Source: an uncultured archaeon (lineage in GTDB: Archaea > Thermoplasmatota > Penumbrarchaeia > JASLWR01). From it: DNA of 18,172 nucleotides. This document shows positions 503 to 17,989 of this stretch, piece after piece. The stretch is from the NCBI GenBank assembly GCA_964430885.1, contig CAYSHM010000035.1, positions 1 through 18,172 of the forward strand, given 5' to 3'. The notes beneath the pieces are model-generated. The model saw only the letters and a list, made by a program, of their open reading frames with translations. It was not told where the DNA came from and ran no database searches. The position numbers and the translations under genes were made by a program. Numbering within the stretch: position 1 is the stretch's first letter; each line of letters begins with the position of its first letter.

Positions 503-3049
503 ATGACTGCTGACACTAAGAAAAAAATTATTTCTGGAATACTTTGCTCTTTTCTTATACTGGGTTTGGTATTCCCTCTCGGGAACGAATCTTTCTGGAC
601 TTTGAACAGTAGGGCAGAGAGCATTACCAAAAGAGTGCTAATAGAATGGAACGGAACCGTTAACGTGGATGATGATACGAACATCCCTGCCGGTACTGAA
701 CTCCATATAGCCCCGGGAACTATAGTGGAAATGGCCTATAGTGCCGAGCTGTACATCCATGGGACCATTACTGTCGCCGGGACGGATGCTGAACCAGTGA
801 TTTTCAGGAGCGCTACTCCCCCGGACCGATGGGGATCCATCCATGTTTATCATGACAGTGTGAACAGTGTTTTCAGAAATGCTACAATAAAAGAAGGGCA
901 GTACGGTATAAGAGGCCAAAATGCGGAATTTGAGGTTTACGACCTGACCATCACAAACTGCAAGTACGGCATCGGAGCAGTCCAGGGGAGCGATATATAC
1001 ATCGAGAATACAAATATTGATAATTCCATGTTCTTCAGTGTTTATGGGGAAGGATCAGAGGTAACCTTTTACAACTGTACAATTGGGAGCAACGGCGAGG
1101 ACGATATGCATTTGGATCAGCATGTTGGAAACGGCTGTGTCATCAACTTCATTAACGGCAATTACAATTTCAATTCTCTTTCCATTCAGGATGCTAACAC
1201 GGAAGTCAATAGATGCTGGTCAATGGACATTCAAATCACCGAAGGAGGAGATGGCAGTCCAATCCATGGAGCAGGGGTTACTATTCAAAGAAGCAATTAT
1301 CAAGAGGCGTTCAGCGGTTCAACGGGAACTGACGGCCGGATCAGAGGAATCGTATTGACCCAGATCCAGTATAAAGAGGTTGGGCCAATTACATTCAATC
1401 CATTCATATTCACAATTGAAATGAATGGGTTCGGTACCAATGTGTCCACAATTACTATTGAGGATTTCACAAAAATCACTATCCCCTTGTATCCCGCCAA
1501 CAGTGCCCCAGAACTGACTCAGGACATACCGCTTCTGGAAACCATGCAGAATTCAGGGGATAATGAACTTATCGATCTGCGATTACATTTCCAAGACGAT
1601 AATACCGCTGATGATGATCTGACCTTCACGGTAAACTACAATTCCAATCCCGCTGATGTTGATATCTTTTTAAAAAATGATTATTTCCTCACAATAAACA
1701 CCACGCGAAATCGGCTTTTCAATGGTTTAGTTGGTTCAAAGGTAATAGCGGAGGATGAGAATGGCGAATCTTCATTGAGCAATAATTTCTATATCGATGT
1801 TCTAGAGGTCCCCTTGCCTCCGGAGATCATTCCATTCCCCGATTTCAATCTTCAAGAGGGAGAGGTGAAGCTCACTGCCCTCTATGTTTTTGACCATGTA
1901 AGCGACCCCGATACCGATTACGAAGATCTGGTAATAACCCTTGTAAACAATACTCATGGAGCCAATGTTGATGTGAAGATCGTCGGGGATGTACTCAAGA
2001 TCATACCTCTGAAGGATTACAATGGTGACGGTTCCGTGGAGGTCAGCGTGGATGATGGAAATTTCACACTGGTGGATAAATTCTTTATTAATATCACTCC
2101 GGCCAACGACCCGCCGGAACTCAGTATTGACACCCCGGCCAATGATGATAAGGTAGGAAACACTACCCATATCATAGGAAATGCTTCGGACATTGACGGG
2201 GACGCACTTACTTTGACCATGGAGATAGGACAAAGCACTCAAACCCATGATGTTGATGGAAATTTTGACATCCTCCTGGACCTCAGCAATTATCTTGGGA
2301 AAAGTATAACCATAAAGCTCACACTAAGCGACGGTAGAGTGGAAGACATCGTTATTATCACGCTTGAAGTAATGGACGTCTCCGGTGCAGACACGGACAA
2401 TGACGGCACACCGGACGACTTGGATGATGATGACGACAATGACGGGGTCGAGGATGGACTTGATGATTTCCCTCTGGATCCCGCTGCTTCAAAGGATGAT
2501 GACAATGACGGATTCCCCGATACCTGGAACCCGGGTATGAACGAGGGAAATTCCACAACAGGCCTCGAACTTGATATGTTCCCCGACAACGAATTCGAAT
2601 GGTTCGATTCCGACAACGACGGTGTGGGAAACAACGGCGATTCATTTCCAATGGACCCCGCTGCTTCAAAGGATGAGGATCTGGATGGATCCCCCGACCA
2701 ATGGAACACAGGAAAGGAGCAGAACGATTCAACAACAGGTCTCCATCTGGACTCATTCCCTCTAGATTCTGCCGCAAGCCGGGATTCCGATGGGGACGGC
2801 TATCCTGACGAATGGAATCAGGGAAAAACGGAAGCTGACTCAATCACAGGGCTCAAAATTGACCAATATCCAAATGATCCTAACAAAAATACCGCTGATG
2901 ATACCCCGGATGATGACGATGATACGGATCCCCAGGAGAACACACCCAAGAAATCGGATTCTCCAGGATTCAAGATGCCCATGGTGATCACTGTCATGAT
3001 CTTTGGGATATTCCTATTATCATACTTCAGAAAGAAAAAGATGAATTGA
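503..3049 (+). CDS. Secreted cell-surface protein (848 aa): N-terminal signal/anchor, right-handed beta-helix region, cadherin/Ig-like domains, thrombospondin type-3-like Asp-rich repeats, C-terminal PGF-CTERM sorting signal
   Basis: N-terminus KKKII followed by a hydrophobic stretch. 'ELHIAPGTIVEM...GTITVAGTDAEPVIFRS...WGSI' is a typical beta-helix start. 'PANSAP', 'PANDPP' and 'DYNGDGSVEVSVDDG' are cadherin-like linkers. DxDxDGxPD repeats are present. C-terminus SPGF + hydrophobic helix + RKKK. SD GAAGGTGA at 491-498. Confidence 0.85.
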   Translation: MTADTKKKIISGILCSFLILGLVFPLGNESFWTLNSRAESITKRVLIEWNGTVNVDDDTNIPAGTELHIAPGTIVEMAYSAELYIHGTITVAGTDAEPVIFRSATPPDRWGSIHVYHDSVNSVFRNATIKEGQYGIRGQNAEFEVYDLTITNCKYGIGAVQGSDIYIENTNIDNSMFFSVYGEGSEVTFYNCTIGSNGEDDMHLDQHVGNGCVINFINGNYNFNSLSIQDANTEVNRCWSMDIQITEGGDGSPIHGAGVTIQRSNYQEAFSGSTGTDGRIRGIVLTQIQYKEVGPITFNPFIFTIEMNGFGTNVSTITIEDFTKITIPLYPANSAPELTQDIPLLETMQNSGDNELIDLRLHFQDDNTADDDLTFTVNYNSNPADVDIFLKNDYFLTINTTRNRLFNGLVGSKVIAEDENGESSLSNNFYIDVLEVPLPPEIIPFPDFNLQEGEVKLTALYVFDHVSDPDTDYEDLVITLVNNTHGANVDVKIVGDVLKIIPLKDYNGDGSVEVSVDDGNFTLVDKFFINITPANDPPELSIDTPANDDKVGNTTHIIGNASDIDGDALTLTMEIGQSTQTHDVDGNFDILLDLSNYLGKSITIKLTLSDGRVEDIVIITLEVMDVSGADTDNDGTPDDLDDDDDNDGVEDGLDDFPLDPAASKDDDNDGFPDTWNPGMNEGNSTTGLELDMFPDNEFEWFDSDNDGVGNNGDSFPMDPAASKDEDLDGSPDQWNTGKEQNDSTTGLHLDSFPLDSAASRDSDGDGYPDEWNQGKTEADSITGLKIDQYPNDPNKNTADDTPDDDDDTDPQENTPKKSDSPGFKMPMVITVMIFGIFLLSYFRKKKMN
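2468..2866 (+). repeat. Three 37-aa (111-nt) intragenic repeats FP(L/M)DxAAS(K/R)DxDxDGxPDxWNxG...S(T/I)TGLx(L/I)D, with one 22-aa TSP3-like unit between copies 1 and 2
   Basis: Units start at 2468, 2645 and 2756. DNA similarity between copies 1 and 2 is visible (cccgctgcttcaaaggatga). Confidence 0.85.
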
Positions 3050-9230: not shown

Positions 9231-10241
9231 CTAAGTTCCCCTATCAAGAATATCATGAAAATCCTGGATAAGATAACGCCATTGACTGCCGGACATTCCA
9301 GTTTCCAGGGCTGTCCGTTCCAATTCATTGACCATATCTTCAGATTCAGCCTTGGTTATGGCAACCTCATTATGCACCTTGACAAGAGGATAAGGATAAC
9401 CCGGATATCCCGCGTCACGACAGTATCTTGAAAGCACGCCCAGATACTTCGAGGGATCATTCCCCGGGAACAAGTCCGCTCTGAATACGAACTGGGATAA
9501 TGGGTGAAGTTTTACTGCCGTAACCAAAGGTGGTCGGGATGAAATATTATTTCCTCTGAAAATATCCTGACCAAAGGTCACAGGTACATTCAGGTACCAT
9601 TTCTTTTTATGGACCATCCGATTTGACCAGTATTGAATATGGGGCAGCAATGGTATCCCTTTCAAGCTGAGAGAGGTGGATTTGGAGAGCCCTATTAGCT
9701 TAATATTTCTATCTTCAGCTATGCCGAGTATATCTGCCATTTTGTTCTCCAGATGAGGTATTCCAGGCATTAACGTACCGTCAACAAGCAGCATGGAGCC
9801 TGCGGGCAGGTCTGAAACCAAGCTCTCGATCATTTCAAGTTCCTTGGCTTCCCTTACCAAGGATAGTACCGTTTCCGGGTCCTTAACTTTATTGGTCAAC
9901 CGGGGAATTAGCTTGCAATGGGTGAGAAAATCCCGGTTCAGATCGGGTTTTCTGATAAATATGGGGGCCCCCGCCTCCTCCCTTCGGTCCACCTCATTTC
10001 CGTCATCAAAAATAATAGCTAGAACCCTCTGGAACCCTACAATGAAGTTCGGGGCTTTCAAAATTACCGATGAAGAACCATCAACAGCAGCTGTCAGATG
10101 AGGGCCCTTATGGGTTTTAAACACCTGAAAATCGTCTTCTGAAAGGGGAGGAAGCACATTCTGTGAATATACTGATAACAAGGTCTCTGCAATAGACCTT
10201 GACCAATCTCCAACACCCTTGGCAGTCTGCTCCTGGCTCAT
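9231..10241 (-). CDS. nurA: NurA-family nuclease, about 336 aa
   Basis: AAVDGSS, LLVDGTL, IGLSKST and C-terminal GYPYPLVKVHNEV are NurA motifs. Directly upstream of herA. ATG at 10241 preferred over TTG at 10253 because of the TATA-box spacing. Confidence 0.85.
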   Translation of the reverse strand: MSQEQTAKGVGDWSRSIAETLLSVYSQNVLPPLSEDDFQVFKTHKGPHLTAAVDGSSSVILKAPNFIVGFQRVLAIIFDDGNEVDRREEAGAPIFIRKPDLNRDFLTHCKLIPRLTNKVKDPETVLSLVREAKELEMIESLVSDLPAGSMLLVDGTLMPGIPHLENKMADILGIAEDRNIKLIGLSKSTSLSLKGIPLLPHIQYWSNRMVHKKKWYLNVPVTFGQDIFRGNNISSRPPLVTAVKLHPLSQFVFRADLFPGNDPSKYLGVLSRYCRDAGYPGYPYPLVKVHNEVAITKAESEDMVNELERTALETGMSGSQWRYLIQDFHDILDRGT

Positions 10242-10265
10242 TGAAGAAAGCAAAAAGCATGTTGT

Positions 10266-10273
10266 TATTTAAA
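10266..10273 (-). promoter_or_regulatory. Putative archaeal TATA box (TTTAAATA) for a leaderless nurA-herA transcript
   Basis: Lies about 25 nt upstream of ATG 10241, which has no SD motif. The spacing fits archaeal leaderless transcripts. Confidence 0.45.
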
Positions 10274-10426
10274 TGTTGTTCTGAGGTGAAGAAAAGTAAG
10301 AGTGAATCTGTTCGCTATGTTGCCTAATGATCTTTCGTTTTCCCCTAAACTGCAATATGAAAGTTGCATCTATAGCACTCTTTGCTTTTTCATTTAAAAG
10401 AATAAAACAGAGTTCATCCGACATAA

Positions 10427-10464
10427 TTTTAAAAATGATATTGTCGTTTAGGTGGCCCGGGTGA
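10427..10464 (+). promoter_or_regulatory. Putative TATA box (TTTTAAAAA, 10427-10435) and SD (GGGTGA, 10459-10464) of the redox operon
   Basis: TATA spacing places a transcription start just before the SD, which is 5 nt upstream of ATG 10470. Confidence 0.45.
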
Positions 10465-10469
10465 TGAAT

Positions 10470-12440
10470 ATGTCGGTCCGAGGCAATGAAGAACAGGAGG
10501 ATGCTGAGGAGTTCAAGCGCCAAGAGCGTATCTTTGATCTCTGCGGCTGCACCACCTGTCCCGGAAAGGACAATTGTCAGTTGAAGGATGTGATAACTTA
10601 TCTTGATATGGACCTGTCCGCTTTCCGGATCAGCGAAAGGGAGATCCCACTTGAGAACGGTGACCCATTCTTTGACAGGGATTATGACCTCTGTATATTA
10701 TGCGGACGCTGTGTAAGGGTTTGTCATGACATCAGGGGCAATGGAGCAATATCTCTTATCAACCGAGGGTCTAAGGCAAGGGTAGGGACAGCCTTTGGGG
10801 AGGGGCATCTAGAGGGGCCCTGCATGTTCTGCGGAGCCTGTGTGGACGTATGCCCTACCGGAGCTCTGAGCATTAAGGAAAGACGATATTATGGTCAGGC
10901 GGATAGAACGGTGAAATCGACATGCAGCCTGTGCGGGCTGGGCTGTTCTATGGATCTAATGGTGAAATGGAAAAGGGTTGTAGATGCAGAACCAAATATT
11001 GAAGGATGGAATAAAGGGCAGGGCTGCGTACTGGGAAGATTCTGCCTCCCTCAAATGGATCGGATTGCTCCTAGGCTGAAAACTCCATTGATAAGAAAGG
11101 AAGGAGTGTTAGTCCCTGTGGGATGGGATGAAGCGATAGAGGAAACATGTTCCAGACTTGCCGAGTTCAATCCCGGGGACATAGGATTCATATTCTCCAG
11201 GGACCTGACCAATGAAAGTTCAGAGCTCCTTGGCCGGATATCCATCAAAGGATTCCCCGGTTCAAGCAGGTATTTGGATTCGCCCCTTGCTGAATTGATG
11301 CAGAGATATTATTTCAAAATACCGACCAATTCGGTTAGCGCTCAATTTCAGTTTGCCGACAAAACTCAAAAAGACGGCATGATCCTTATAGTAGGCGGGA
11401 GACCGGACCTGACCCACGGACAGCTGATGGCGGATCTGAAAAGGGCCAAGAACAATGGTACTGCAATAGTATATGTCGGATTGCATCCCTATGTCAATAC
11501 CGGCAAGGAAACCATCAATATTGACAGCCGCCAATACTCCGTTGTATTGCTGTCAATTCTAAATAACATGATAAAGGTAAAAGTGGAGGGCGAGGATTTT
11601 GACCTTGATTCAGATGTTGACAGCCAGGGCGAACTGAACAGACTCAGTAGCTTTCTTGACGGTCATTTAAATGGCTCGGATACTGGATCATTTGATGAAA
11701 TCAGCACCATATTGGAGAAGTGTGCGGATAATATCACCATTTTCATGGGAGTGGATATTCTAAACGAAGAAAAAGAAGGGGATCCTGCATTAACAATAAC
11801 TGCTGCTATGGATATTCTTGAACTTTCAGGCAATTCCGGCAGCCTATTGTTCCTATTAGAGGGGAATTCAAGGGGAGTTATTGAAAATATTGTTCTTCAG
11901 GATGCAGATGATTTCGGATCTGGCGATGTGGCTGGAAAAAAGGTAATCTTCACAACTGCCATGGATGCCGAGATCCCTGACTCCGCTGAACTTGTAATAC
12001 TGCAGAATCCGTTTGAAGGAAAATTGACCGATATGTCCGATATCATTCTACCAGCGGCATCCCTTACTGAAACCCATGGAACCATGACTACCCTATACGG
12101 AAAAAAAGCGGTAATCAATGAAGCAGGTCAAGCTCCGGGTACGGCAATGCAGGACAAATGGATATTTGATAGGATAATTGCCAAACTAGGTATTGAGTTG
12201 GAACTGCACAGCGGTGAAAAGGTAGATAATGATCAGCAGAATATTGAGGAGACGGGGAAAGAAAGGGGATCATTCAAAAGCCTTGTTCTCCAGAAACTGG
12301 CAGAATATCCTGATCATAAATTTGATGTAAGAATCGTAAGAAGCGAGCCCTTCACTTTTAGAGGAATTAAGATCCAGAACATTCTTCAGGACCTTGAGGT
12401 TTTTCTTAACCACCGTATGAATCCAAAGGGGGGTGATTGA
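10470..12440 (+). CDS. NuoG/FdhA-like iron-sulfur subunit lacking the N-terminal [2Fe-2S] domain, with a degenerate molybdopterin domain (about 656 aa)
   Basis: Begins with CGCTTCPGKDNCQL, then 2x[4Fe-4S] motifs CILCGRCVRVC and CMFCGACVDVCP, then the Mo-domain cluster motif TCSLCGLGC...GC, plus RLKTPLIR, WDEA and DIILPAA...E. No catalytic Cys/Sec-His motif is visible. Start at ATG 10470 based on the SD. Confidence 0.85.
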   Translation: MSVRGNEEQEDAEEFKRQERIFDLCGCTTCPGKDNCQLKDVITYLDMDLSAFRISEREIPLENGDPFFDRDYDLCILCGRCVRVCHDIRGNGAISLINRGSKARVGTAFGEGHLEGPCMFCGACVDVCPTGALSIKERRYYGQADRTVKSTCSLCGLGCSMDLMVKWKRVVDAEPNIEGWNKGQGCVLGRFCLPQMDRIAPRLKTPLIRKEGVLVPVGWDEAIEETCSRLAEFNPGDIGFIFSRDLTNESSELLGRISIKGFPGSSRYLDSPLAELMQRYYFKIPTNSVSAQFQFADKTQKDGMILIVGGRPDLTHGQLMADLKRAKNNGTAIVYVGLHPYVNTGKETINIDSRQYSVVLLSILNNMIKVKVEGEDFDLDSDVDSQGELNRLSSFLDGHLNGSDTGSFDEISTILEKCADNITIFMGVDILNEEKEGDPALTITAAMDILELSGNSGSLLFLLEGNSRGVIENIVLQDADDFGSGDVAGKKVIFTTAMDAEIPDSAELVILQNPFEGKLTDMSDIILPAASLTETHGTMTTLYGKKAVINEAGQAPGTAMQDKWIFDRIIAKLGIELELHSGEKVDNDQQNIEETGKERGSFKSLVLQKLAEYPDHKFDVRIVRSEPFTFRGIKIQNILQDLEVFLNHRMNPKGGD

Positions 12441-12441
12441 A

Positions 12442-12945
12442 TTGACCGAAGGAAGATCTGAACATATGAACAAATGTGAAGATGAAAGGATCGTGGTAGA
12501 AAATATACTTCGCAGCAGGGAAGGGTCCAGAAAGAACCTAATCCCGCTTCTACAGGATATCCAGGAAGCTTTGGGATACATATCCCCTGAAGCAGTAAGA
12601 ATTATCGCGGAAACTACCGGTATGACTGCCAGCTACATATTCGGCGTGGCTACCTTCTATGCCCAATTCAGATTTCAACGACCCGGTAAATACCAGATAA
12701 GGATATGTGAAGGTACTGCCTGCCATGTCAGAGGTACCCAGGAGATCATATCCGAGGTCAAGAGACGGCTGAACATAGAGAAAGGTGAGACCACAAAGGA
12801 CGGCCTTTTCAGTCTGGAGACCGTCGCCTGTATGGGCTGCTGCGCTTTGGCTCCTGTGATGATGGTAAACGAGGATGTATACGGAGAATGCACACCTGAA
12901 AAGGCTGGCCGGATCATTGAGGATTACTCCATGGAGGCGATCTGA
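12442..12945 (+). CDS. nuoE: NuoE/HydC-like [2Fe-2S] thioredoxin-fold subunit
   Basis: LIPLLQDIQEALGYI, GVATFYAQF, CEGTACH...CMGCCALAP. TTG at 12442 follows SD GGGGGTGA. ATG at 12466 is an alternative start. Confidence 0.92.
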   Translation: MTEGRSEHMNKCEDERIVVENILRSREGSRKNLIPLLQDIQEALGYISPEAVRIIAETTGMTASYIFGVATFYAQFRFQRPGKYQIRICEGTACHVRGTQEIISEVKRRLNIEKGETTKDGLFSLETVACMGCCALAPVMMVNEDVYGECTPEKAGRIIEDYSMEAI

Positions 12946-12946
12946 G

Positions 12947-14866
12947 ATGACATTGGAAGAACTAAGGTCTGAAGCAGAGATCAAGATAAGGGAACTTACG
13001 AAGTGCGGAAAACCTGTGATTTATTTCGGCGCTGCATCATGCGGAAGGGCCGCAGGCGTCCTAGAAACCATATCTGCAGCGAGGGAGGCACTTGACGAAG
13101 TAAATGCGGAAGCGGAGCTCGTGGAGGTAGGCTGTATTGGAATGTGCTGTTACGAGCCCTTGGTCTATCTATCTGTAACTGGAAGCCAACCCCTTTGCTT
13201 CGGTAATGTGACACCTTCTAGGATGAAAAAAATCATCTCCAGCTTCATTGTGAACAATAATTCCCTGGATGATATGGATAACAAGACATATCCATTGGGG
13301 GTATTGGACCTGGACGGATATGAGAATGTGGTAGGTATTCCGCCTTTAACCCAACATCCAATGCTGAAACCCCAGGTGAGATTGGTCCTCAGAAACTGCG
13401 GAAAAATCGACCCCACGGATATCAAGGATTATGTATCAAATGACGGGTACAGGGCTCTGGAGAAAATATTGAAAATGGAACCTGAAGAAGTTATCGATGA
13501 GATAAAAAGATCAGGTTTGGGGGGAAGAGGTGGAGCCGGGTTCCCTACCGGTCTTAAATGGGAGTTATGCAGGAATAACCAAAGTGATTTCAGATACCTT
13601 ATATGCAATGCCGACGAGGGCGATCCTGGAGCTTTCATGAACAGGTCCCTTCTCGAGAGTGATCCGCATGCGGTGCTTGAGGGCATGCTCATTGCGGGAT
13701 ATGCAATTGGGTGCCGGGAAGGCTATATTTATATAAGAGCTGAATATCCACTGGCGATAAAACGGCTGAACACTGCCATAGAACAGATGAAGAAGCACAA
13801 TCTATTGGGTCAGAACATCCTTGACAACGGATTCTCTTTTGACATAAACATAAAGAAAGGTGCTGGGGCTTTTGTGTGCGGTGAGGAAACAGCCCTGATG
13901 GCCTCTATTGAAGGAAAAAGAGGCATGCCCAGGCCGAGACCGCCCTTTCCAGCCCAATCCGGACTATGGGGGGAACCCACCAATATAAACAACGTCGGAA
14001 CACTGGGAAGCGTTGCAAATATCATAAGGATGGGTGGCGTTGAATTTGCCCGGTTCGGTTCTGAAACCGCTAAGGGAACCAAGACATTTTCCCTTGTAGG
14101 CAAGATAGAAAGAACTGGTCTTATCGAGGTCCCGCTGGGAACCTCTCTGGGCGAGATCATTTTCGACATCGGCGGCGGAATCAAGGGCGGAAAGAAATTC
14201 AAAGCAGTTCAGACCGGGGGCCCTTCCGGAGGCTGTATTCCCGCTTCGAAGATAGATATTTCCGTTGACTATAAATCCCTAAGCGAAGTGGGCTCAATAA
14301 TGGGTTCCGGGGGCATAGTGGTAATGGATGAAGATACATGTATGGTGGATATCGCTAAGTTCTTCCTCACCTTCACCCAGGATGAATCATGCGGAAAATG
14401 CCCCCCATGCCGTATCGGAACCAAGAGAATGCTGGAAATACTTATAAGGATAACTGAAGGAAGAGGACGTCCTGAAGATATAGATCAGCTGATCAAGCTC
14501 TGCGATACCATAGGAAAAGCATCCCTCTGCGGTCTAGGGCAGACTGCACCAAATCCAGTATTGACCACTCTGACCTATTTCAGGGACGAATATGAAGCAC
14601 ACATCTATACTAAAAGATGTCCTGCAAAGGTCTGCAAGGAACTCTATGAATTCCACATTGATCCTGAGACCTGCATAGGCTGCGGACAATGCTCGAAGGC
14701 CTGCCCCGTGAATGCCATAACAGGAGAAAGAAAAGAAGTTCACATAATCGATAAAGATGAATGCATAAAGTGCGGTGTATGCTTTGCAGTGTGTCCGAAA
14801 AAGGTAAGGGCTGTAAAGAAGATCGATAGATATCCAAAGACTGATGAAGAAGGTGATCTGGAATGA
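12947..14866 (+). CDS. nuoF: NuoF/HydB-like FMN- and NAD(H)-binding subunit, long form with N-terminal thioredoxin-like domain and C-terminal 2x[4Fe-4S] domain (about 639 aa)
   Basis: GRGGAGFPTG, CNADEGDPGAFM, FVCGEETAL, GGPSGG, ESCGKCPPCR...LC, and C-terminal CIGCGQCSKACP and CIKCGVCFAVCP. ATG at 12947 with SD GGAGG at 12933-12937. Confidence 0.93.
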   Translation: MTLEELRSEAEIKIRELTKCGKPVIYFGAASCGRAAGVLETISAAREALDEVNAEAELVEVGCIGMCCYEPLVYLSVTGSQPLCFGNVTPSRMKKIISSFIVNNNSLDDMDNKTYPLGVLDLDGYENVVGIPPLTQHPMLKPQVRLVLRNCGKIDPTDIKDYVSNDGYRALEKILKMEPEEVIDEIKRSGLGGRGGAGFPTGLKWELCRNNQSDFRYLICNADEGDPGAFMNRSLLESDPHAVLEGMLIAGYAIGCREGYIYIRAEYPLAIKRLNTAIEQMKKHNLLGQNILDNGFSFDINIKKGAGAFVCGEETALMASIEGKRGMPRPRPPFPAQSGLWGEPTNINNVGTLGSVANIIRMGGVEFARFGSETAKGTKTFSLVGKIERTGLIEVPLGTSLGEIIFDIGGGIKGGKKFKAVQTGGPSGGCIPASKIDISVDYKSLSEVGSIMGSGGIVVMDEDTCMVDIAKFFLTFTQDESCGKCPPCRIGTKRMLEILIRITEGRGRPEDIDQLIKLCDTIGKASLCGLGQTAPNPVLTTLTYFRDEYEAHIYTKRCPAKVCKELYEFHIDPETCIGCGQCSKACPVNAITGERKEVHIIDKDECIKCGVCFAVCPKKVRAVKKIDRYPKTDEEGDLE

Positions 14867-15609
14867 TAACCATTAATGGTACAGAATATGAGTTCATCGA
14901 AGGCTTCACTGTTATGGAAGCCGCCGAGCAGGCTGGGCATTACATTCCAAAACTCTGCTCTCATCCATTACTGCCTCCCTTCGGAGCATGCAGGTTGTGC
15001 CTGGTCAAGATCCAAGGGATGAGAGGATATCCGACTTCATGCACTACACCTCTCAGGGACGGCATGGTGATCACCACAGAGGACCATGAGCTCAGATCTC
15101 TGAGGCGAAGCATAATGGAGCTCATTCTATCCGAACACCCCAATCGATGTTTCGGATGCGCCGCCTGTGTTTTGGATTGTGTGGTATGCGCATATCTGGA
15201 TACTGATGAGGAGGTCAGACCCAGATCCATAATGGAAAGGCTGGACATGAACGAGAACCCCCTGGATGGAAAGGAAATTTGGTGCTGTGCCGCCTGCCAT
15301 AAATGCGCAGACGGATGTCCTCACGGATCAAATCCTCAACAGACCTGCTCACTGCTCAAGGAGAGGGCGCTGAAGGAGGGAAAAGTTCCAAAAGGGATAA
15401 TGGCAATGTCAAAAAACATTATAGAAAGCGGTTATTCAGTCCCAATAAATCCCAATGTTGACCGCCAAAGAGAGAGAAGCGGATTGCCTGCATTAAATCG
15501 GCCGAATTCCCGGGAACTCATGAGCATCTTGAAGAGAGCTGGTTCCGCGGAACTTTTCGGATTTGAAAAAGATAAGGACGGAGAAGAAGAAGAGGTGGTG
15601 GCAGAATGA
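14863..15609 (+). CDS. Fusion protein: NuoG/HydA N-terminal [2Fe-2S] domain plus heterodisulfide reductase subunit C (HdrC)-like domain, 248 aa
   Basis: Residues 1-93 carry IPKLC32...GAC43RLC46LV...TSC60TTP...RRSIMELILSEH92P. Residues 96-248 carry C96xxC99xxC102xxxC106, RPRSIM, EIWCC142xxC145xxC148xxxC152P and an HdrC-like tail RERSGLP. ATGA overlaps with both neighbouring genes. Confidence 0.85.
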   Translation: MITINGTEYEFIEGFTVMEAAEQAGHYIPKLCSHPLLPPFGACRLCLVKIQGMRGYPTSCTTPLRDGMVITTEDHELRSLRRSIMELILSEHPNRCFGCAACVLDCVVCAYLDTDEEVRPRSIMERLDMNENPLDGKEIWCCAACHKCADGCPHGSNPQQTCSLLKERALKEGKVPKGIMAMSKNIIESGYSVPINPNVDRQRERSGLPALNRPNSRELMSILKRAGSAELFGFEKDKDGEEEEVVAE

Positions 15610-16502
15610 AAAGCTTTGCCTATTTTCCAGGCTGCGTTATTCCCGTGAACTATCCTCATATAGAGAAGATCACCCTGGACATGCTGAAAAGATTCAATAT
15701 CGAACTCCTTCACCTAGAAGGTTTCTCCTGCTGTCCGGAACCTATAGAGTTCGCCTCTCTTCACCCCCTTACCACACTGGGTTTCTCTGCAAGGAACCTC
15801 GCCATCGCCCAGGAAACCGGATTGGACATATTAACAGCATGCAACGGATGCACCTTGAGCCTGAAGGATGCTGCTGATAAGCTGGAAAAGGACCCCGAGT
15901 TACTCGGGAAGGTAAATGAAGTTCTCCAGGATACTCCTTTCAGGTACAACGGCGGTGTAAAGGTATATCATTTTTTAGAGGTTTTCAAAGATATTATAGG
16001 AAGAGATAAACTAGCTGCTTCAGTAACCAGGCCGCTGACAGGAGTCCGAATCGCCACGCATACCGGATGCCATCTGCTGTCCCCTCCTGAATTGATAGGA
16101 TTCGAAGCAGATCCCGGAACACCTGTGGAGTTTGACCAGTTGATAGAGGCAATAGGCGGGATACCGGTGGATTACGCGACCAAAACCCTCTGCTGCGGAA
16201 TTTCTCACAGTCTAGGTGGAACACCAAAATCCAGCTTCCTAATGGTAAAGGACAAGATTGTTGACGTTGACAGCAACCGAGTTGACTGCATGGCTGTCGG
16301 CTGTCCTTCATGCCTTTCTCAGCTGGATAAGGGACAGCACATAGTTGCCCGCAAATTCAAACTGGACATATCCATACCCGTGCTCTACTTCACCCAGCTA
16401 TTAGGTCTGGCCCTTGGTTTGGACCTCAAAGAGGTAGGCTACATGAAGAACAGGGTAAAGAACAAGGAGTTCCAGCAGAAAATTGAAGGCTTGGGTAATT
16501 GA
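15606..16502 (+). CDS. hdrB: Heterodisulfide reductase subunit B (two CCG domains), 298 aa
   Basis: C10-x31-C42C43-x35-C79xxC82 and C155-x40-C196C197-x35-C233xxC236. Also YFPGC, ARNLAIA, HTGCH, QLDKGQ and IPVLYFTQLLGLALG. Confidence 0.93.
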   Translation: MKSFAYFPGCVIPVNYPHIEKITLDMLKRFNIELLHLEGFSCCPEPIEFASLHPLTTLGFSARNLAIAQETGLDILTACNGCTLSLKDAADKLEKDPELLGKVNEVLQDTPFRYNGGVKVYHFLEVFKDIIGRDKLAASVTRPLTGVRIATHTGCHLLSPPELIGFEADPGTPVEFDQLIEAIGGIPVDYATKTLCCGISHSLGGTPKSSFLMVKDKIVDVDSNRVDCMAVGCPSCLSQLDKGQHIVARKFKLDISIPVLYFTQLLGLALGLDLKEVGYMKNRVKNKEFQQKIEGLGN

Positions 16503-16540
16503 AATGTTGCATTCAGTATTGAATTATTTTCATATATTAT

Positions 16541-17989
16541 CTACTGGCTATCTTTGATTGCTTCATCTATTAGTTTTTCACCCTGAGAAAGCAGAAAATC
16601 AGCTCTTTTCCTGCTCATGGCATCGGAATATACCCGGAACAAAGGCTCGGTCCCGGACGGTCTGACCAATAACCAAGAATTATCATTATATATTCTCTTG
16701 AGTCCGTCAATGGTTATGTCCATCTTTTTATCCTTTGCAAGGTTCACATCCTCGTTGAACCTTTTCACAACTGAAGCATAGACTGAATCCTTGGATTGGT
16801 CCGAGCATCTTCTCTGGCCTTTGGCCTGATAGAAATCAGGGAAATCGTCCGCCAATTCAGCCAAAGTCATCTTCCTTTCAGCCATTATCTGCAGCAGGAA
16901 AAGAGTGGCAAGATTGCCGTCGCACCAGTGAACATCCTTGGCAAAATAATATTTTCCGCTCTCCTCATAGGCATATACTGCCTTATCCCCGTGTTCCATG
17001 AGTGCCCGCTCAGTATCAGGCTGGCCAATCCTACAGTATGCCATCTTCACCTCGTATTTCTCTGCGAGATAATCTATTAGACCTGAAGAGTTCACCGGGG
17101 TTATGCATACCGGATCGTCTACTTTCTCATCGGCGCATTTCTCAAAGATCCATTTTCCGAAAATGGCGCCTACTACATCCTCTGACACTACTTTGCCTTC
17201 TTCATCAATGAAAACGACCCTGTCAGCATCAACGTCAGTTGCAGCAGCAAGTTTAGCATTATGCTTCCGAAGGGCATTTATCGTAGAGTCCAGAGTGGTC
17301 GCCCTGGGCTCGGCAGAGCGGTCAGGGTTCCCTTTTCGGATATTATTTATAGCTGCAACCTTGATACCGCATCTCTTGACCATGGCAGGAAGAATATCCA
17401 CAGCAGTTCCGTTTCCCGGATCCAGTACTATCCTGAAATTCTTTTCAAGGGTTAATTCTGCAATAAATTCCCGATCGATAAGGGATAGTGCATGCTCCAT
17501 ATATCTCTCCATCCTCCCGGTCACAACCTTTCGTATACCAATATCATTCATGACCGAACGATCATCGGGGGACCCACATTCTGATTGACTGAAGTACAAT
17601 TCCTCAACTTCCAGAGCTTTTTTATCACTGATATAGCATGCATTGGAATCCATATAGATGAGGCCGATCCTATTTGGCGGCATATGGGAGCCAGTCACCA
17701 TAACTCCTCCCTTTCCGCCGAGCTCGATGATCGACAGAGCCAGGGCAGGAGTGGGCATTATTCCACAATCCAGAACATCCAGACCTGCAGAATTGAGACC
17801 TGCGGTGATCGCCTGGGTAAGCATCTGAGCACCGAACCGGGTATCCCTGGCCATTACAACCATTCCCTTTCCGCCCAACCATTTTCCGAAGGCATAGGAT
17901 AGTTCCATTGCCAGCATGGGAGTAATTTCAGTATTCGTTTCACCTCTTACACCTGATGTTCCGAACAATTTTGGTTTCTTCTCTGACAT
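16541..17989 (-). CDS. Alpha-D-phosphohexomutase family protein (phosphomannomutase/phosphoglucosamine mutase-like), 482 aa
   Basis: LFGTSGVRG, RDTR, PTP, phospho-Ser motif TGSHMP, metal loop DVDADR, YEESG and RPSGTEP. SD GGTGA at 17998-17994. Confidence 0.9.
   Translation of the reverse strand: MSEKKPKLFGTSGVRGETNTEITPMLAMELSYAFGKWLGGKGMVVMARDTRFGAQMLTQAITAGLNSAGLDVLDCGIMPTPALALSIIELGGKGGVMVTGSHMPPNRIGLIYMDSNACYISDKKALEVEELYFSQSECGSPDDRSVMNDIGIRKVVTGRMERYMEHALSLIDREFIAELTLEKNFRIVLDPGNGTAVDILPAMVKRCGIKVAAINNIRKGNPDRSAEPRATTLDSTINALRKHNAKLAAATDVDADRVVFIDEEGKVVSEDVVGAIFGKWIFEKCADEKVDDPVCITPVNSSGLIDYLAEKYEVKMAYCRIGQPDTERALMEHGDKAVYAYEESGKYYFAKDVHWCDGNLATLFLLQIMAERKMTLAELADDFPDFYQAKGQRRCSDQSKDSVYASVVKRFNEDVNLAKDKKMDITIDGLKRIYNDNSWLLVRPSGTEPLFRVYSDAMSRKRADFLLSQGEKLIDEAIKDSQ

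Follow-up and report, generated by a model that had tools for sequence, protein, structure and literature searches.

Electron bifurcation is known from four machineries, two of which are the flavoprotein HdrA and the core of flavin mononucleotide (FMN) and iron-sulfur clusters of the Bfu enzymes, and heterodisulfide reduction is the textbook high-potential pull of HdrA. Here we describe a five-gene operon of an uncultured marine archaeon (positions 10470-16502, plus strand) in which HdrB and HdrC, the catalytic unit of heterodisulfide reductase (Hdr), are plugged directly into a Bfu core. The operon lies on contig C35 of genome G000, and this contig, in its entire length of 18,172 bases, is the window analysed here. 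The locus is real and intact, it encodes a predicted Bfu-family enzyme with an HdrBC output and no HdrA, and it is neither categorically new nor unique.

Among the described Bfu enzymes, HydABC, the NiFe-HydABCSL of Acetomicrobium mobile (7T2R/7T30), NfnABC of Caldicellulosiruptor saccharolyticus (9BOV) and Thermococcus sibiricus (9N5U) and StnABC of Sporomusa ovata (8OH5) have in common with the window operon the BfuB/BfuC core and a BfuA-type head with an iron-sulfur body. In the window, however, the third-substrate module is HdrBC and not a hydrogenase, a formate dehydrogenase or an NADP site, and BfuA is split, with its head fused to HdrC. Schut et al. (2022, PMC9304861) define the Bfu family through its BfuBC core, which is invariant and carries clusters B1-B5 and C1. 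The third-reaction types listed in that work are hydrogenase, Fdh, Nfn, F420, Wor, Bam, Codh, Por, Mbh, Nuo and Rub, and 18 of its 57 Bfu clades are uncharacterised; an HdrBC type appears neither in its classification section nor in its third-reaction table, and its supplementary tables, which lie outside this comparison, may list such a context.

On the Hdr side, the MvhADG-HdrABC and FdhAB-HdrABC complexes of methanogens (5ODC, 8RVU, 7BKB) display the same HdrC and HdrB folds and the same cluster cysteines as the window proteins. The window operon, in contrast, has no HdrA, MvhD, hydrogenase or formate dehydrogenase, takes its input from a NuoEF-type FMN module, and scores below the cut-offs of the HdrB and HdrC equivalog models. 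FlxABCD-HdrABC, another soluble Hdr complex, is NADH-linked and uses HdrA, with an NAD(H) subunit that is not known to be of the NuoF type. It is called "Hdr-IFO" in PMC5736913, where that name corresponds to the D. vulgaris cassette DVU2399-2404, so that Hdr-Ifo was dropped as a candidate for a NuoEF-type Hdr partner. One studied complex, the class II benzoyl-CoA reductase BamBCDEFGHI (Bam-Bfu), does unite HydBC-like (BamGHI) and HdrBC-like (BamD) parts (PMC9304861; bioRxiv 10.64898/2026.04.10.717634). There, as far as the consulted sections of these sources describe it, the link runs through the MvhD-like BamF and the HdrA-like BamE, a second site of bifurcation, and BamD passes electrons to an electron-transferring flavoprotein (ETF), whereas in the window the two parts are linked directly, by fusion of their genes, with neither HdrA nor MvhD.

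No description of a NuoEF/HydBC core coupled to HdrBC in the absence of HdrA turned up in the full-text papers searched, which include few from subscription journals, nor in the passages of PMC5736913, PMC8407382 and PMC11237513 compared here. The sequence-only reading of this DNA had proposed a candidate new redox complex with an architecture that it did not recognise from characterised enzymes. Within the literature just named the second half of that statement holds, in that the HdrA-less Bfu-HdrBC build has no characterised match. As a correction to that reading, operons that combine Bfu and Hdr parts with HdrA are common in relatives of this organism.

A split BfuA predicted to join the Bfu core to HdrBC

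The operon consists of five tightly spaced genes, here called G1-G5, recognised from the open reading frame (ORF) listing and from Pfam and NCBIfam scans; the predicted five-subunit complex has a total length of 2011 residues. Their common orientation, close packing and order had been read from the sequence beforehand and are borne out by these data, and the domain scans upheld the assignments of all five proteins. G1 and G2 overlap by 8 nt if G2 starts at the GTG at 12433, or are separated by 25 nt if it starts at the ATG at 12466, the gap between G2 and G3 is 1 nt, and G3/G4 and G4/G5 each share an ATGA overlap; the five genes appear to be translationally coupled. As had also been reported, the ORF and domain scans detect no hdrA, mvhD or hydrogenase large subunit among the operon genes.

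G3 (12947..14866, 639 aa) consists of a NuoF core (PF01512, Complex1_51K, E 3.2e-47; PF10589, NADH_4Fe-4S, E 1.5e-34) followed by a C-terminal 2x[4Fe-4S] region. It aligns over nearly its full length, from residue ~25-34 to ~617, with the solved BfuB chains of C. saccharolyticus NfnABC (9bov_B, E 7e-232), T. sibiricus NfnB (9n5u_B, E 4.2e-221), S. ovata StnABC (8oh5_B, E 6e-220) and A. mobile NiFe-HydABCSL (7t2r_B, E 1.3e-212), whereas chains of the non-bifurcating NuoF and FdsB align only with its core, residues ~125-560. Residues ~25-110 align with the N-terminal thioredoxin-like [2Fe-2S] (B5) domain of the solved BfuB chains, with three matching cysteines, and Fer4-family matches at 570-620 (B3/B4) align with the same region of all four chains. 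The diagnostic B2 site, which in A. mobile comprises C438, C476 (Thr in two-thirds of members), H525, C531 and C536, includes a His that is missing in non-bifurcating homologues, as are the N-terminal extension and the C-terminal 2x[4Fe-4S] region, according to the sections of the family description used here (PMC9304861). In G3, C465, T503, H552, C558 and C563 align without gaps with these five residues. In agreement with the earlier assignment to the HydB type, G3 is to be classed as a bifurcating HydB/Bfu-type NuoF on the strength of these alignments. The genome has two further NuoF-like genes, with open frames of 449 and 463 aa, and the long type occurs only in the window. Its partner G2 (12433..12945; alternative ATG start 12466) is a NuoE/HydC/BfuC homologue, the thioredoxin-like [2Fe-2S] subunit of the C1 cluster, matching PF01257 (E 6.6e-53) over 143 of 145 profile positions and NF005722 with 156.7 bits against a cut-off of 141.

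The third component of a Bfu enzyme, BfuA, is found in two places. G1 (10470..12440, 656 aa) represents the BfuA/NuoG-like body, with 2x[4Fe-4S], Molybdop_Fe4S4 and Molybdopterin domains; it fits only positions 95-600 of the NuoG model, the head being absent, and its best match among solved structures is 7t2r_A, the BfuA of A. mobile NiFe-HydABCSL (E 1.2e-35). The cysteines of the Molybdop_Fe4S4 cluster are in place (C152, C155, C159 and C186), and the molybdopterin-like domain is weak and degenerate; in all, the body retains four cluster motifs. G1 has neither the Cys/Sec-His pair nor the Molydop_binding domain, both of which are present in two FdhA rows of the same alignment (L037 and L035), and this excludes a formate dehydrogenase; G1 is probably a non-catalytic, NuoG-like iron-sulfur protein.

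The head is encoded by the first part of G4 (whole gene 14863-15609). Residues 1-92 (14863..15138) form a BfuA/NuoG [2Fe-2S] head, or A1 domain (PF13510, Fer2_4, E 2.4e-19 over residues 2-74), with cysteines C32, C43, C46 and C60, and residues 93-248 (15139..15609) form a full HdrC. In phmmer comparisons with solved chains, G4 93-239 aligns with residues 33-180 of the 184 in HdrC 5odc_C (E 1.8e-11), as well as with 7bkb_C 41-159, and TIGR03290 matches at E 1.6e-15. The eight cysteines of its two CxxCxxCxxxC motifs, C96/99/102/106 and C142/145/148/152 (the latter followed by P153), are invariant in alignment A2. The C-terminal tail, which in HdrC holds HdrB, aligns with the HdrC of loci in which hdrC and hdrB are followed by fdhA, and the joint between head and HdrC restores a perfect CxxCxxCxxxC motif.

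Comparison with related genomes suggests how this arrangement arose. Genomes of the same class carry nuoE-nuoF followed by an intact nuoG-like gene of 781-869 aa; G4 residues 2-101 are 52-56% identical to the first 100 residues of these intact proteins, G1 residues 24-646 are 30-33% identical to the remainder, and the point at which BfuA is split is the cysteine-rich linker behind the head. G1 and the G4 head are, on this sequence evidence, the two halves of one ancestral BfuA gene. The sequence-only reading, which spoke of a headless NuoG and of a [2Fe-2S]-HdrC fusion, was accordingly right about domain content and has been corrected as to what the parts are, namely halves of a single gene that is intact in relatives. 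The order body-E-F-head would fit a tandem duplication of E-F-(head-body) followed by deletions at the ends. In G1 the first cysteine motif reads C25-G-C27-TT-C30-PGKDN-C36, where relatives have T-G-C-xx-C-x5-C, and the extra cysteine C25 would complete a four-ligand set after the split, which may be a sign of continued function.

In the AlphaFold2 model of G4 (mean predicted local distance difference test, pLDDT, 77.3), pLDDT falls below 50 at residues 91-95 and 116-119, a putative hinge. The top fold matches are the HdrC chains 5odh_I and 5odc_C (170 columns), and the head matches the N-termini of HydA, BfuA and NuoG over ~90 columns with a root-mean-square deviation of 3.2. By sequence, alignment and predicted fold, G4 is a true chimera of a head and HdrC. 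We also predicted the complex of G1(1-340) with G4, which had an interaction prediction score from aligned errors (ipSAE) of 0.61 (median of runs of 0.61, 0.63 and 0.61), as compared with 0.00 for the best of three controls; the mark used for this score is reached by 58 of 80 solved complexes and by 2 of 110 mismatched pairs. The runs agree on no fewer than 62% of contacts, with a partner pLDDT of 76 or higher, and the predicted G1 interface on the G4 head comprises residues 27-45 and 78-93. This interface score is to be read as likeness and not as binding, because G1 and the head derive from one gene that was split, and structures of the unsplit protein (BfuA/NuoG) have been solved.

A word-based search of 5.8 billion proteins returned no full-length relative of G4, since none of its 18 matches, all of them to the head side, extended over more than 63% of the query, and in an exhaustive HMMER search of 1.84 billion representatives none of the best 150 of 10,756 matches extended past residue 156 in its best stretch. 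Matches over G4 2-155 were considered as possible fusions and proved, by Pfam, to be ordinary HydA/NuoG N-termini. Searching genome contigs for G4 as a single protein gave 35 pattern matches and 0 confirmed cases, metagenome contigs gave 1 locus with the head only, and in 41 related genomes no match covers both the [2Fe-2S] head and the HdrC part.

The last gene, G5 (15606..16502, 298 aa), encodes HdrB, with two CCG domains (PF02754 twice). Its alignments with solved HdrB chains have E values from 1.4e-60 (5odc_B, residues 3-284) to 1.2e-53, and C10, C42, C43, C79, C82, C155, C196, C197, C233 and C236 match cysteines of these chains and are invariant in 31 clade members; following the 5ODC work, we take these ten aligned cysteines to be the ligands of the two non-cubane clusters. 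G5 is the sole CCG-domain gene of the genome. Since G1 has no catalytic site, lacking the Cys/Sec-His pair and Molydop_binding, HdrB would be the only candidate for the catalytic output of the complex, as had been proposed. The equivalog models score under their cut-offs (TIGR03288, 257.8 against 345.15; TIGR03290, 57.3 against 160; NF041780, 108.5 against 450), and the second-best NCBIfam match of G5 is SdhE, at 154 bits. G5 is therefore not assigned as a reductase of the heterodisulfide of coenzymes M and B (CoM-S-S-CoB), and its substrate is probably a different one.

We then looked for HdrA in the rest of the genome, which comprises 3.13 Mb in 44 contigs and is 91.6% complete with 1.4% contamination. 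The hidden Markov model NF041778 matched ferredoxin-type stretches only, at no more than 32 bits, as compared with 426-689 bits in three other genomes and 578-766 bits on HdrA-containing proteins of other loci. Searches with tblastn using a Promethearchaeial HdrA2-MvhD and the 1076-aa BfuA-HdrA of a genome of the same family (G003) recovered no flavoprotein core, and the MvhD of G003 had no match. In line with the expectation of an HdrA-free system, three queries thus detected no HdrA elsewhere in this 91.6%-complete genome, and neither the PF02662 scan nor tblastn found a stand-alone MvhD in it. The only PF02662 (MvhD) match, at 22.4 bits, lies inside a 956-aa ORF on contig C18, which was rejected as an HdrA and is GltD/NfnB-like instead. 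This C18 locus (35104-41251; L029:5105-11252) encodes a fusion of the GltD/NfnB-like part with 2x[4Fe-4S] and the weak MvhD-like part, followed by a 707-aa protein with Fer2_4, Pyr_redox_2, Fer4 and BFD domains and by a 386-aa DAO-type oxidase. Contig C38, whose first gene is homologous to the one that ends the Hdr-Bfu operon of G003, was considered as a truncated Hdr operon and proved to be a group-3b-like NiFe hydrogenase/sulfhydrogenase set, so that the genome also encodes a hydrogenase of this kind. There (L138:3-4571), hydrogenase beta (Fer4_22) and gamma (NAD_binding_1 and DHODB Fe-S) are fused in an ORF of at least 635 aa, with the small and large hydrogenase subunits and a HycI protease downstream.

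The DNA itself is well supported. Identical G4, G5, G3 and G1 proteins are recorded on 3 contigs, the longest of 35,188 bases, and the stretch is held by four DNA runs, all from one marine-metagenome study. Contigs of 28,088 and 35,011 bases, assembled per run from two samples (depth 15 and 18.7), cover 10200-16700 with 0 differences; these two samples may be the source of this DNA. Two further samples contain low-depth identical fragments at 14734-14951, across the G3/G4 start, and at 15015-15193, across the joint of head and HdrC at ~15139. The few apparent joints or loose ends in the comparison with read runs are short 90-95% matches to nuoF of other organisms, and G+C content is even over the window (0.37-0.49 per kb). 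A misassembly, raised earlier as a possible refutation, is ruled out by the two spanning per-run contigs together with the identical fragments from two more samples, and a chimera confined to one contig is very unlikely.

Relatives with HdrA and an HdrB clade without it

Bfu and Hdr modules also meet in relatives of this archaeon. In G003 (contig C4, L126:995-11161), hdrC and hdrB are followed by nuoE with an N-terminal extension, nuoF, the gene of the 1076-aa fusion, mvhD, an FrhB-like gene and a Fer4_22 gene, and the fusion protein combines a NuoG head and 2x4Fe4S with an HdrA part that scores 834 bits to HdrA2. A relative at class level, G009 (contig C45, L127:3763-13320), has the order hdrC-hdrB-hdrA-[HdrA fragment::nuoE]-nuoF-[1098-aa head::HdrA], with an hdrA of 715 aa and further genes behind. 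Both place two bifurcation modules in a single operon, and it is in these two loci that the HdrA-containing Bfu-Hdr type was confirmed. They resemble the window in having the Bfu core and HdrBC in one operon with the NuoG head as a fusion partner; unlike the window, they have retained both HdrA (578-834 bits against HdrA models) and MvhD, and their HdrB belongs to a distant clade. Other relatives of the class have nuoE-nuoF and a nuoG-like gene followed by NfnAB-like genes, or an Nfn-type BfuA. The window operon may thus represent one more product of module shuffling around the Bfu core in this lineage, and the one in which HdrA has been lost entirely. In one relative (G035, contig C21; L018:6740-13829), an intact nuoE-nuoF-nuoG-like set (783 aa, non-catalytic) has NfnA-like and NfnB/GltD-like genes directly behind it, and a second NfnAB-like pair lies upstream on the opposite strand.

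The relatives of G5 lead in another direction. When species-representative genomes were searched with a profile of this HdrB clade, 316 loci were confirmed; the analysis continued with the best 80, whose neighbours were identified by tblastn. In 18 of the 80, a full fdhA, of the catalytic kind, stands directly behind hdrC-hdrB (the one copy tested scored 919 bits to TIGR01591). These loci, in the range L032-L046, L050, L071 and L074 (for example L037:8495-11911 and L035:3288-6775), come from metagenome-assembled genomes (MAGs) labelled Bathyarchaeia, Heimdallarchaeota, Promethearchaeia, Dehalococcoidia, Chloroflexia, Anaerolineae and Desulfobacterota-type. An HdrA homologue occurs anywhere in the fetched flank in only 2 of the 18, and FocA and FdhD lie near the triad in L039. 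The 18 include those relatives that are nearest to G5 and have sufficient flank (40-48% identity); in two others, L030 and L031 (47-49%), the flank is too short or partial to judge. Over all 80 loci, MvhA is nearby in 27, HdrA in 18 and NuoF in 3. The hdrC-hdrB-fdhA triad looks like a formate-linked, HdrA-less Hdr. That HdrBC should go without HdrA, a main point of the sequence-only reading, is true of the window and turns out not to be unusual, since this HdrB clade mostly partners FdhA. In two triads the FdhA frame is interrupted, by one in-frame stop in L040 (9906-11975) and by a split ORF in L050 (9888-11921); tblastn reads through, and the interruption is possibly selenocysteine.

The gene-neighbourhood search also showed that the architecture is not a one-off, as an HdrA-less nuoEF-hybrid-hdrB arrangement exists in Bathyarchaeia. 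Two Bathyarchaeia MAGs (L048 and L049) carry nuoF, a gene for a 284-aa protein and hdrB, with nuoE also upstream in L048, the one hybrid locus with sufficient flank. The 284-aa hybrid has a Fer2 head, a BfuA-type 2x[4Fe-4S] region and a C-terminal tail aligned to the HdrC tail. Matches reaching that tail, with 54-100% identity, were found in 7 of 301 sampled genomes of the Bathyarchaeia class, and in all seven loci (L048, L049 and L130-L134) nuoF directly precedes the hybrid and hdrB directly follows it. As in the window, an HdrA-less BfuBC is here joined to an HdrB of the same clade. The hybrid differs from G4 in that its ferredoxin domain of the BfuA type has been retained and nothing but the tail was taken from HdrC, and there is no separate NuoG-like body. 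In the two hybrid-bearing genomes tested (G041 and G042), HdrA is present, on other contigs.

[quoted passage not shown] The two belong to a group of 25 rows (support 90), which otherwise contains FdhA-adjacent rows, the seven NuoF-adjacent rows of Bathyarchaeia and a single row whose contig is short. The Bathyarchaeia NuoF-adjacent rows form a group of their own (support 99), and the label "NuoF-adjacent" requires 2 changes, with the window row unlabelled and not counted; HdrB of relatives from the window's own family falls in a distant, HdrA-associated part. On this tree the Bathyarchaeia version is a separate recruitment, and the analysis suggests that an adjacent HdrA is typically dispensed with in this HdrB clade, which was combined with a Bfu core on two occasions or more.

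Neighbours of the FdhA-linked loci offer a lead, and a lead only, to the substrate of this clade, which might be the disulfide of a lipoyl protein. In a Dehalococcoidia locus (L036, 2-12300), genes for lipoyl synthase (LipA), a GcvH-like protein and lipoate-protein ligase (LplA) stand beside hdrCB-fdhA, with a dihydrolipoamide-dehydrogenase-like gene upstream of the triad and a small bfuA-nuoF-nuoE set 5 kb away on the opposite strand. LipA and LplA also occur beside the triad in a second Dehalococcoidia locus (L045, 1473-6245), and GcvH-like genes lie near hdrB in 6 of the 80 loci. The sole GcvH match of the window's genome is on a separate contig (C7).

Electron flow and competing explanations

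The covalent fusion of head and HdrC means that the Bfu and Hdr parts are tied together, and we regard it as likely that the products of the five genes make up a single Bfu-HdrBC complex whose target is a sulfur-sulfur bond. The fuller reading, that this is a soluble complex of the Bfu family with HdrBC as its third-substrate module and that it works as an NAD(H)/ferredoxin-coupled disulfide reductase, stands in our judgement at about an even chance. Electrons would pass from FMN to B1 in G3, to the A1 [2Fe-2S] cluster in the G4 head, on to the HdrC clusters of the same protein and finally to HdrB, with the [4Fe-4S] clusters of G1 possibly situated between A1 and HdrC. HdrB would reduce a disulfide, probably other than CoM-S-S-CoB, and ferredoxin would exchange electrons at the C-terminal clusters of G3, so that the Bfu core would take over ferredoxin coupling and make HdrA and MvhD dispensable. 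In the mode to which we lean, NADH and reduced ferredoxin would jointly donate to a high-potential disulfide (confurcation), giving a fermenter an electron sink. Our leaning follows what has been published on Bfu enzymes whose third substrate has a high potential (menaquinone and H2O2, in Nuo-Bfu and Rub-Bfu), for which NADH is proposed to donate together with reduced ferredoxin (PMC9304861). The preference for this mode in particular is tentative and falls somewhat short of even.

Several points weigh against the coupled disulfide reductase as set out above. The relevant potentials are -140 mV for CoM-S-S-CoB, ~-290 mV for lipoamide, -320 mV for NADH and ~-450 mV for ferredoxin; at typical disulfide potentials the reductive direction would be the feasible one, and spending both NADH and reduced ferredoxin on a disulfide of ~-140 to -290 mV would be a waste of energy. 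In addition, all the HdrB and HdrC equivalog models stay below cut-off, the placement of the head relative to HdrC in G4 is predicted with low confidence (predicted template modelling score, pTM, 0.49), and an hdrA could lie on unassembled DNA, the genome being 91.6% complete.

The foremost alternative concerns the direction of coupling. NADH could be the sole donor, bifurcated so that one electron travels via B1, A1 and HdrC to the disulfide and the other via C1, B2, B3 and B4 to ferredoxin, which would sum to 2 NADH + RSSR' + 2 Fd(ox) -> 2 NAD+ + RSH + R'SH + 2 Fd(red), where Fd is ferredoxin. This is close to what the sequence-only reading had put forward, namely NADH-driven disulfide reduction coupled to ferredoxin reduction; such coupling is possible, and it is one of two modes, of which the published Bfu proposals favour the one with NADH and reduced ferredoxin as joint donors. 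The cluster wiring does fork from FMN into two chains, the mean acceptor potential of ~-295 mV obtained from the standard potentials above would make the reaction slightly exergonic, and energy would be conserved and not wasted. The scheme would also parallel the role of HdrA in MvhADG-HdrABC, where the disulfide is the high-potential and ferredoxin the low-potential acceptor (PMC9304861, in the part consulted). Against it, in all characterised Bfu enzymes the role of high-potential partner falls to NAD(H), with mid-potential electrons on the BfuA path, and where the third substrate is of high potential the published proposals make donors of both NADH and reduced ferredoxin (PMC9304861). Moreover, the margin is thin with a lipoyl-like disulfide (~-290 mV), and a peptide or sugar fermenter, as this organism's life-style is presumed to be, usually has reduced ferredoxin to spare. 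On balance this bifurcating scheme strikes us as rather unlikely. The same holds for its extension, in which an HdrA-independent route from NADH to ferredoxin would have arisen on at least two occasions, one in this lineage and one in Bathyarchaeia, with a possibly protein-bound lipoyl group as the disulfide.

Alternatively, HdrBC might serve as an electron-output adaptor to a partner protein or a non-disulfide acceptor, in the way that BamD of class II benzoyl-CoA reductase delivers electrons to ETF (bioRxiv 10.64898/2026.04.10.717634, as far as consulted). Other CCG-domain proteins, namely SdhE, TfrB, GlpC and LutA, act on non-disulfide acceptors, SdhE is the second-best NCBIfam match of G5, TIGR03288 stays under its cut-off, and the organism is not known to make coenzyme M or coenzyme B, although no search for mcr or for CoM/CoB genes was made. 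G5, however, keeps its ten cysteines, whereas the distal cluster of BamD is degenerate in most homologues (same preprint), it aligns end to end with solved HdrB (E 1e-54 to 1e-61), and the operon holds no ETF or membrane-anchor gene. We judge such an adaptor to be improbable.

A plain, non-bifurcating NADH:disulfide oxidoreductase, in which the NuoEF module would act as in complex I or NAD-dependent formate dehydrogenase and the extra NuoF clusters would be idle, is less probable again. NADH alone would be thermodynamically sufficient for typical disulfides, and the arrangement of NuoEF with a [2Fe-2S] head is the same in non-bifurcating enzymes. G3, on the other hand, has retained its N-terminal extension, the B2 set with His and the C-terminal 2x[4Fe-4S], all of which are missing in the non-bifurcating homologues treated in the consulted sections of PMC9304861, and we hold this alternative to be very doubtful. 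That the five genes are not one working enzyme at all, and result from misassembly, are what is left of a rearrangement and now decaying, or encode two enzymes that are unrelated and share a transcript by chance, might be argued from the want of a full-length relative of the exact fusion (among the best 150 of 10,756 matches, in the word-based search and in 41 related genomes) and from the greater divergence of G1 from relatives (30-33%, as compared with 51-54% for G3 and 52-56% for the G4 head), but is extremely improbable in view of the independent per-run contigs and identical fragments over the joint, five open frames, a joint that recreates CxxCxxCxxxC, the C25 of G1 that completes its first motif, the covalent Bfu-Hdr fusion and the parallel architecture conserved in Bathyarchaeia.

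If the Bfu-HdrBC complex works as a disulfide reductase, it would add a sulfur-based third substrate to the Bfu family and would provide a natural test of NADH as a bifurcated donor with a high-potential acceptor attached. Together with the FdhA-linked sister operons, it would point to a whole HdrBC clade functioning without HdrA. Metabolic reconstructions of uncultured sediment archaea, of this lineage and of Bathyarchaeia, in which the pattern "HdrB present, HdrA absent" usually passes for an incomplete pathway, would then need revision.

Flanks of the operon

The operon had been described as complete within the window, and both flanks were verified. Upstream it is bounded by a divergent nurA (9231-10253, minus strand; PF09376) and downstream by a convergent gene of the phosphoglucomutase/phosphomannomutase family (16541-17989, minus strand). 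The AT-rich intergenic region between nurA and G1 (10254..10469) contains TTTAAAA-like boxes at ~10393-10400 and ~10426-10436, upstream of G1, and a Shine-Dalgarno-like GGTGAT stands 6 nt ahead of the G1 ATG at 10470; this region is the probable site of the G1 promoter. Elsewhere in the window, HerA has its best named matches in MAGs of Thermoplasmata and Thermoplasmatota (50-58% identity), and the organism is tentatively taken to be a Thermoplasmatota-like archaeon. An 848-aa ORF at 503-3049 had no Pfam family at E 1e-5. Its product has an N-terminal signal-like stretch and long Asp-rich repeats of the DxDxDG type, a PGF motif precedes its hydrophobic anchor at the C-terminus, and it is probably a surface protein.

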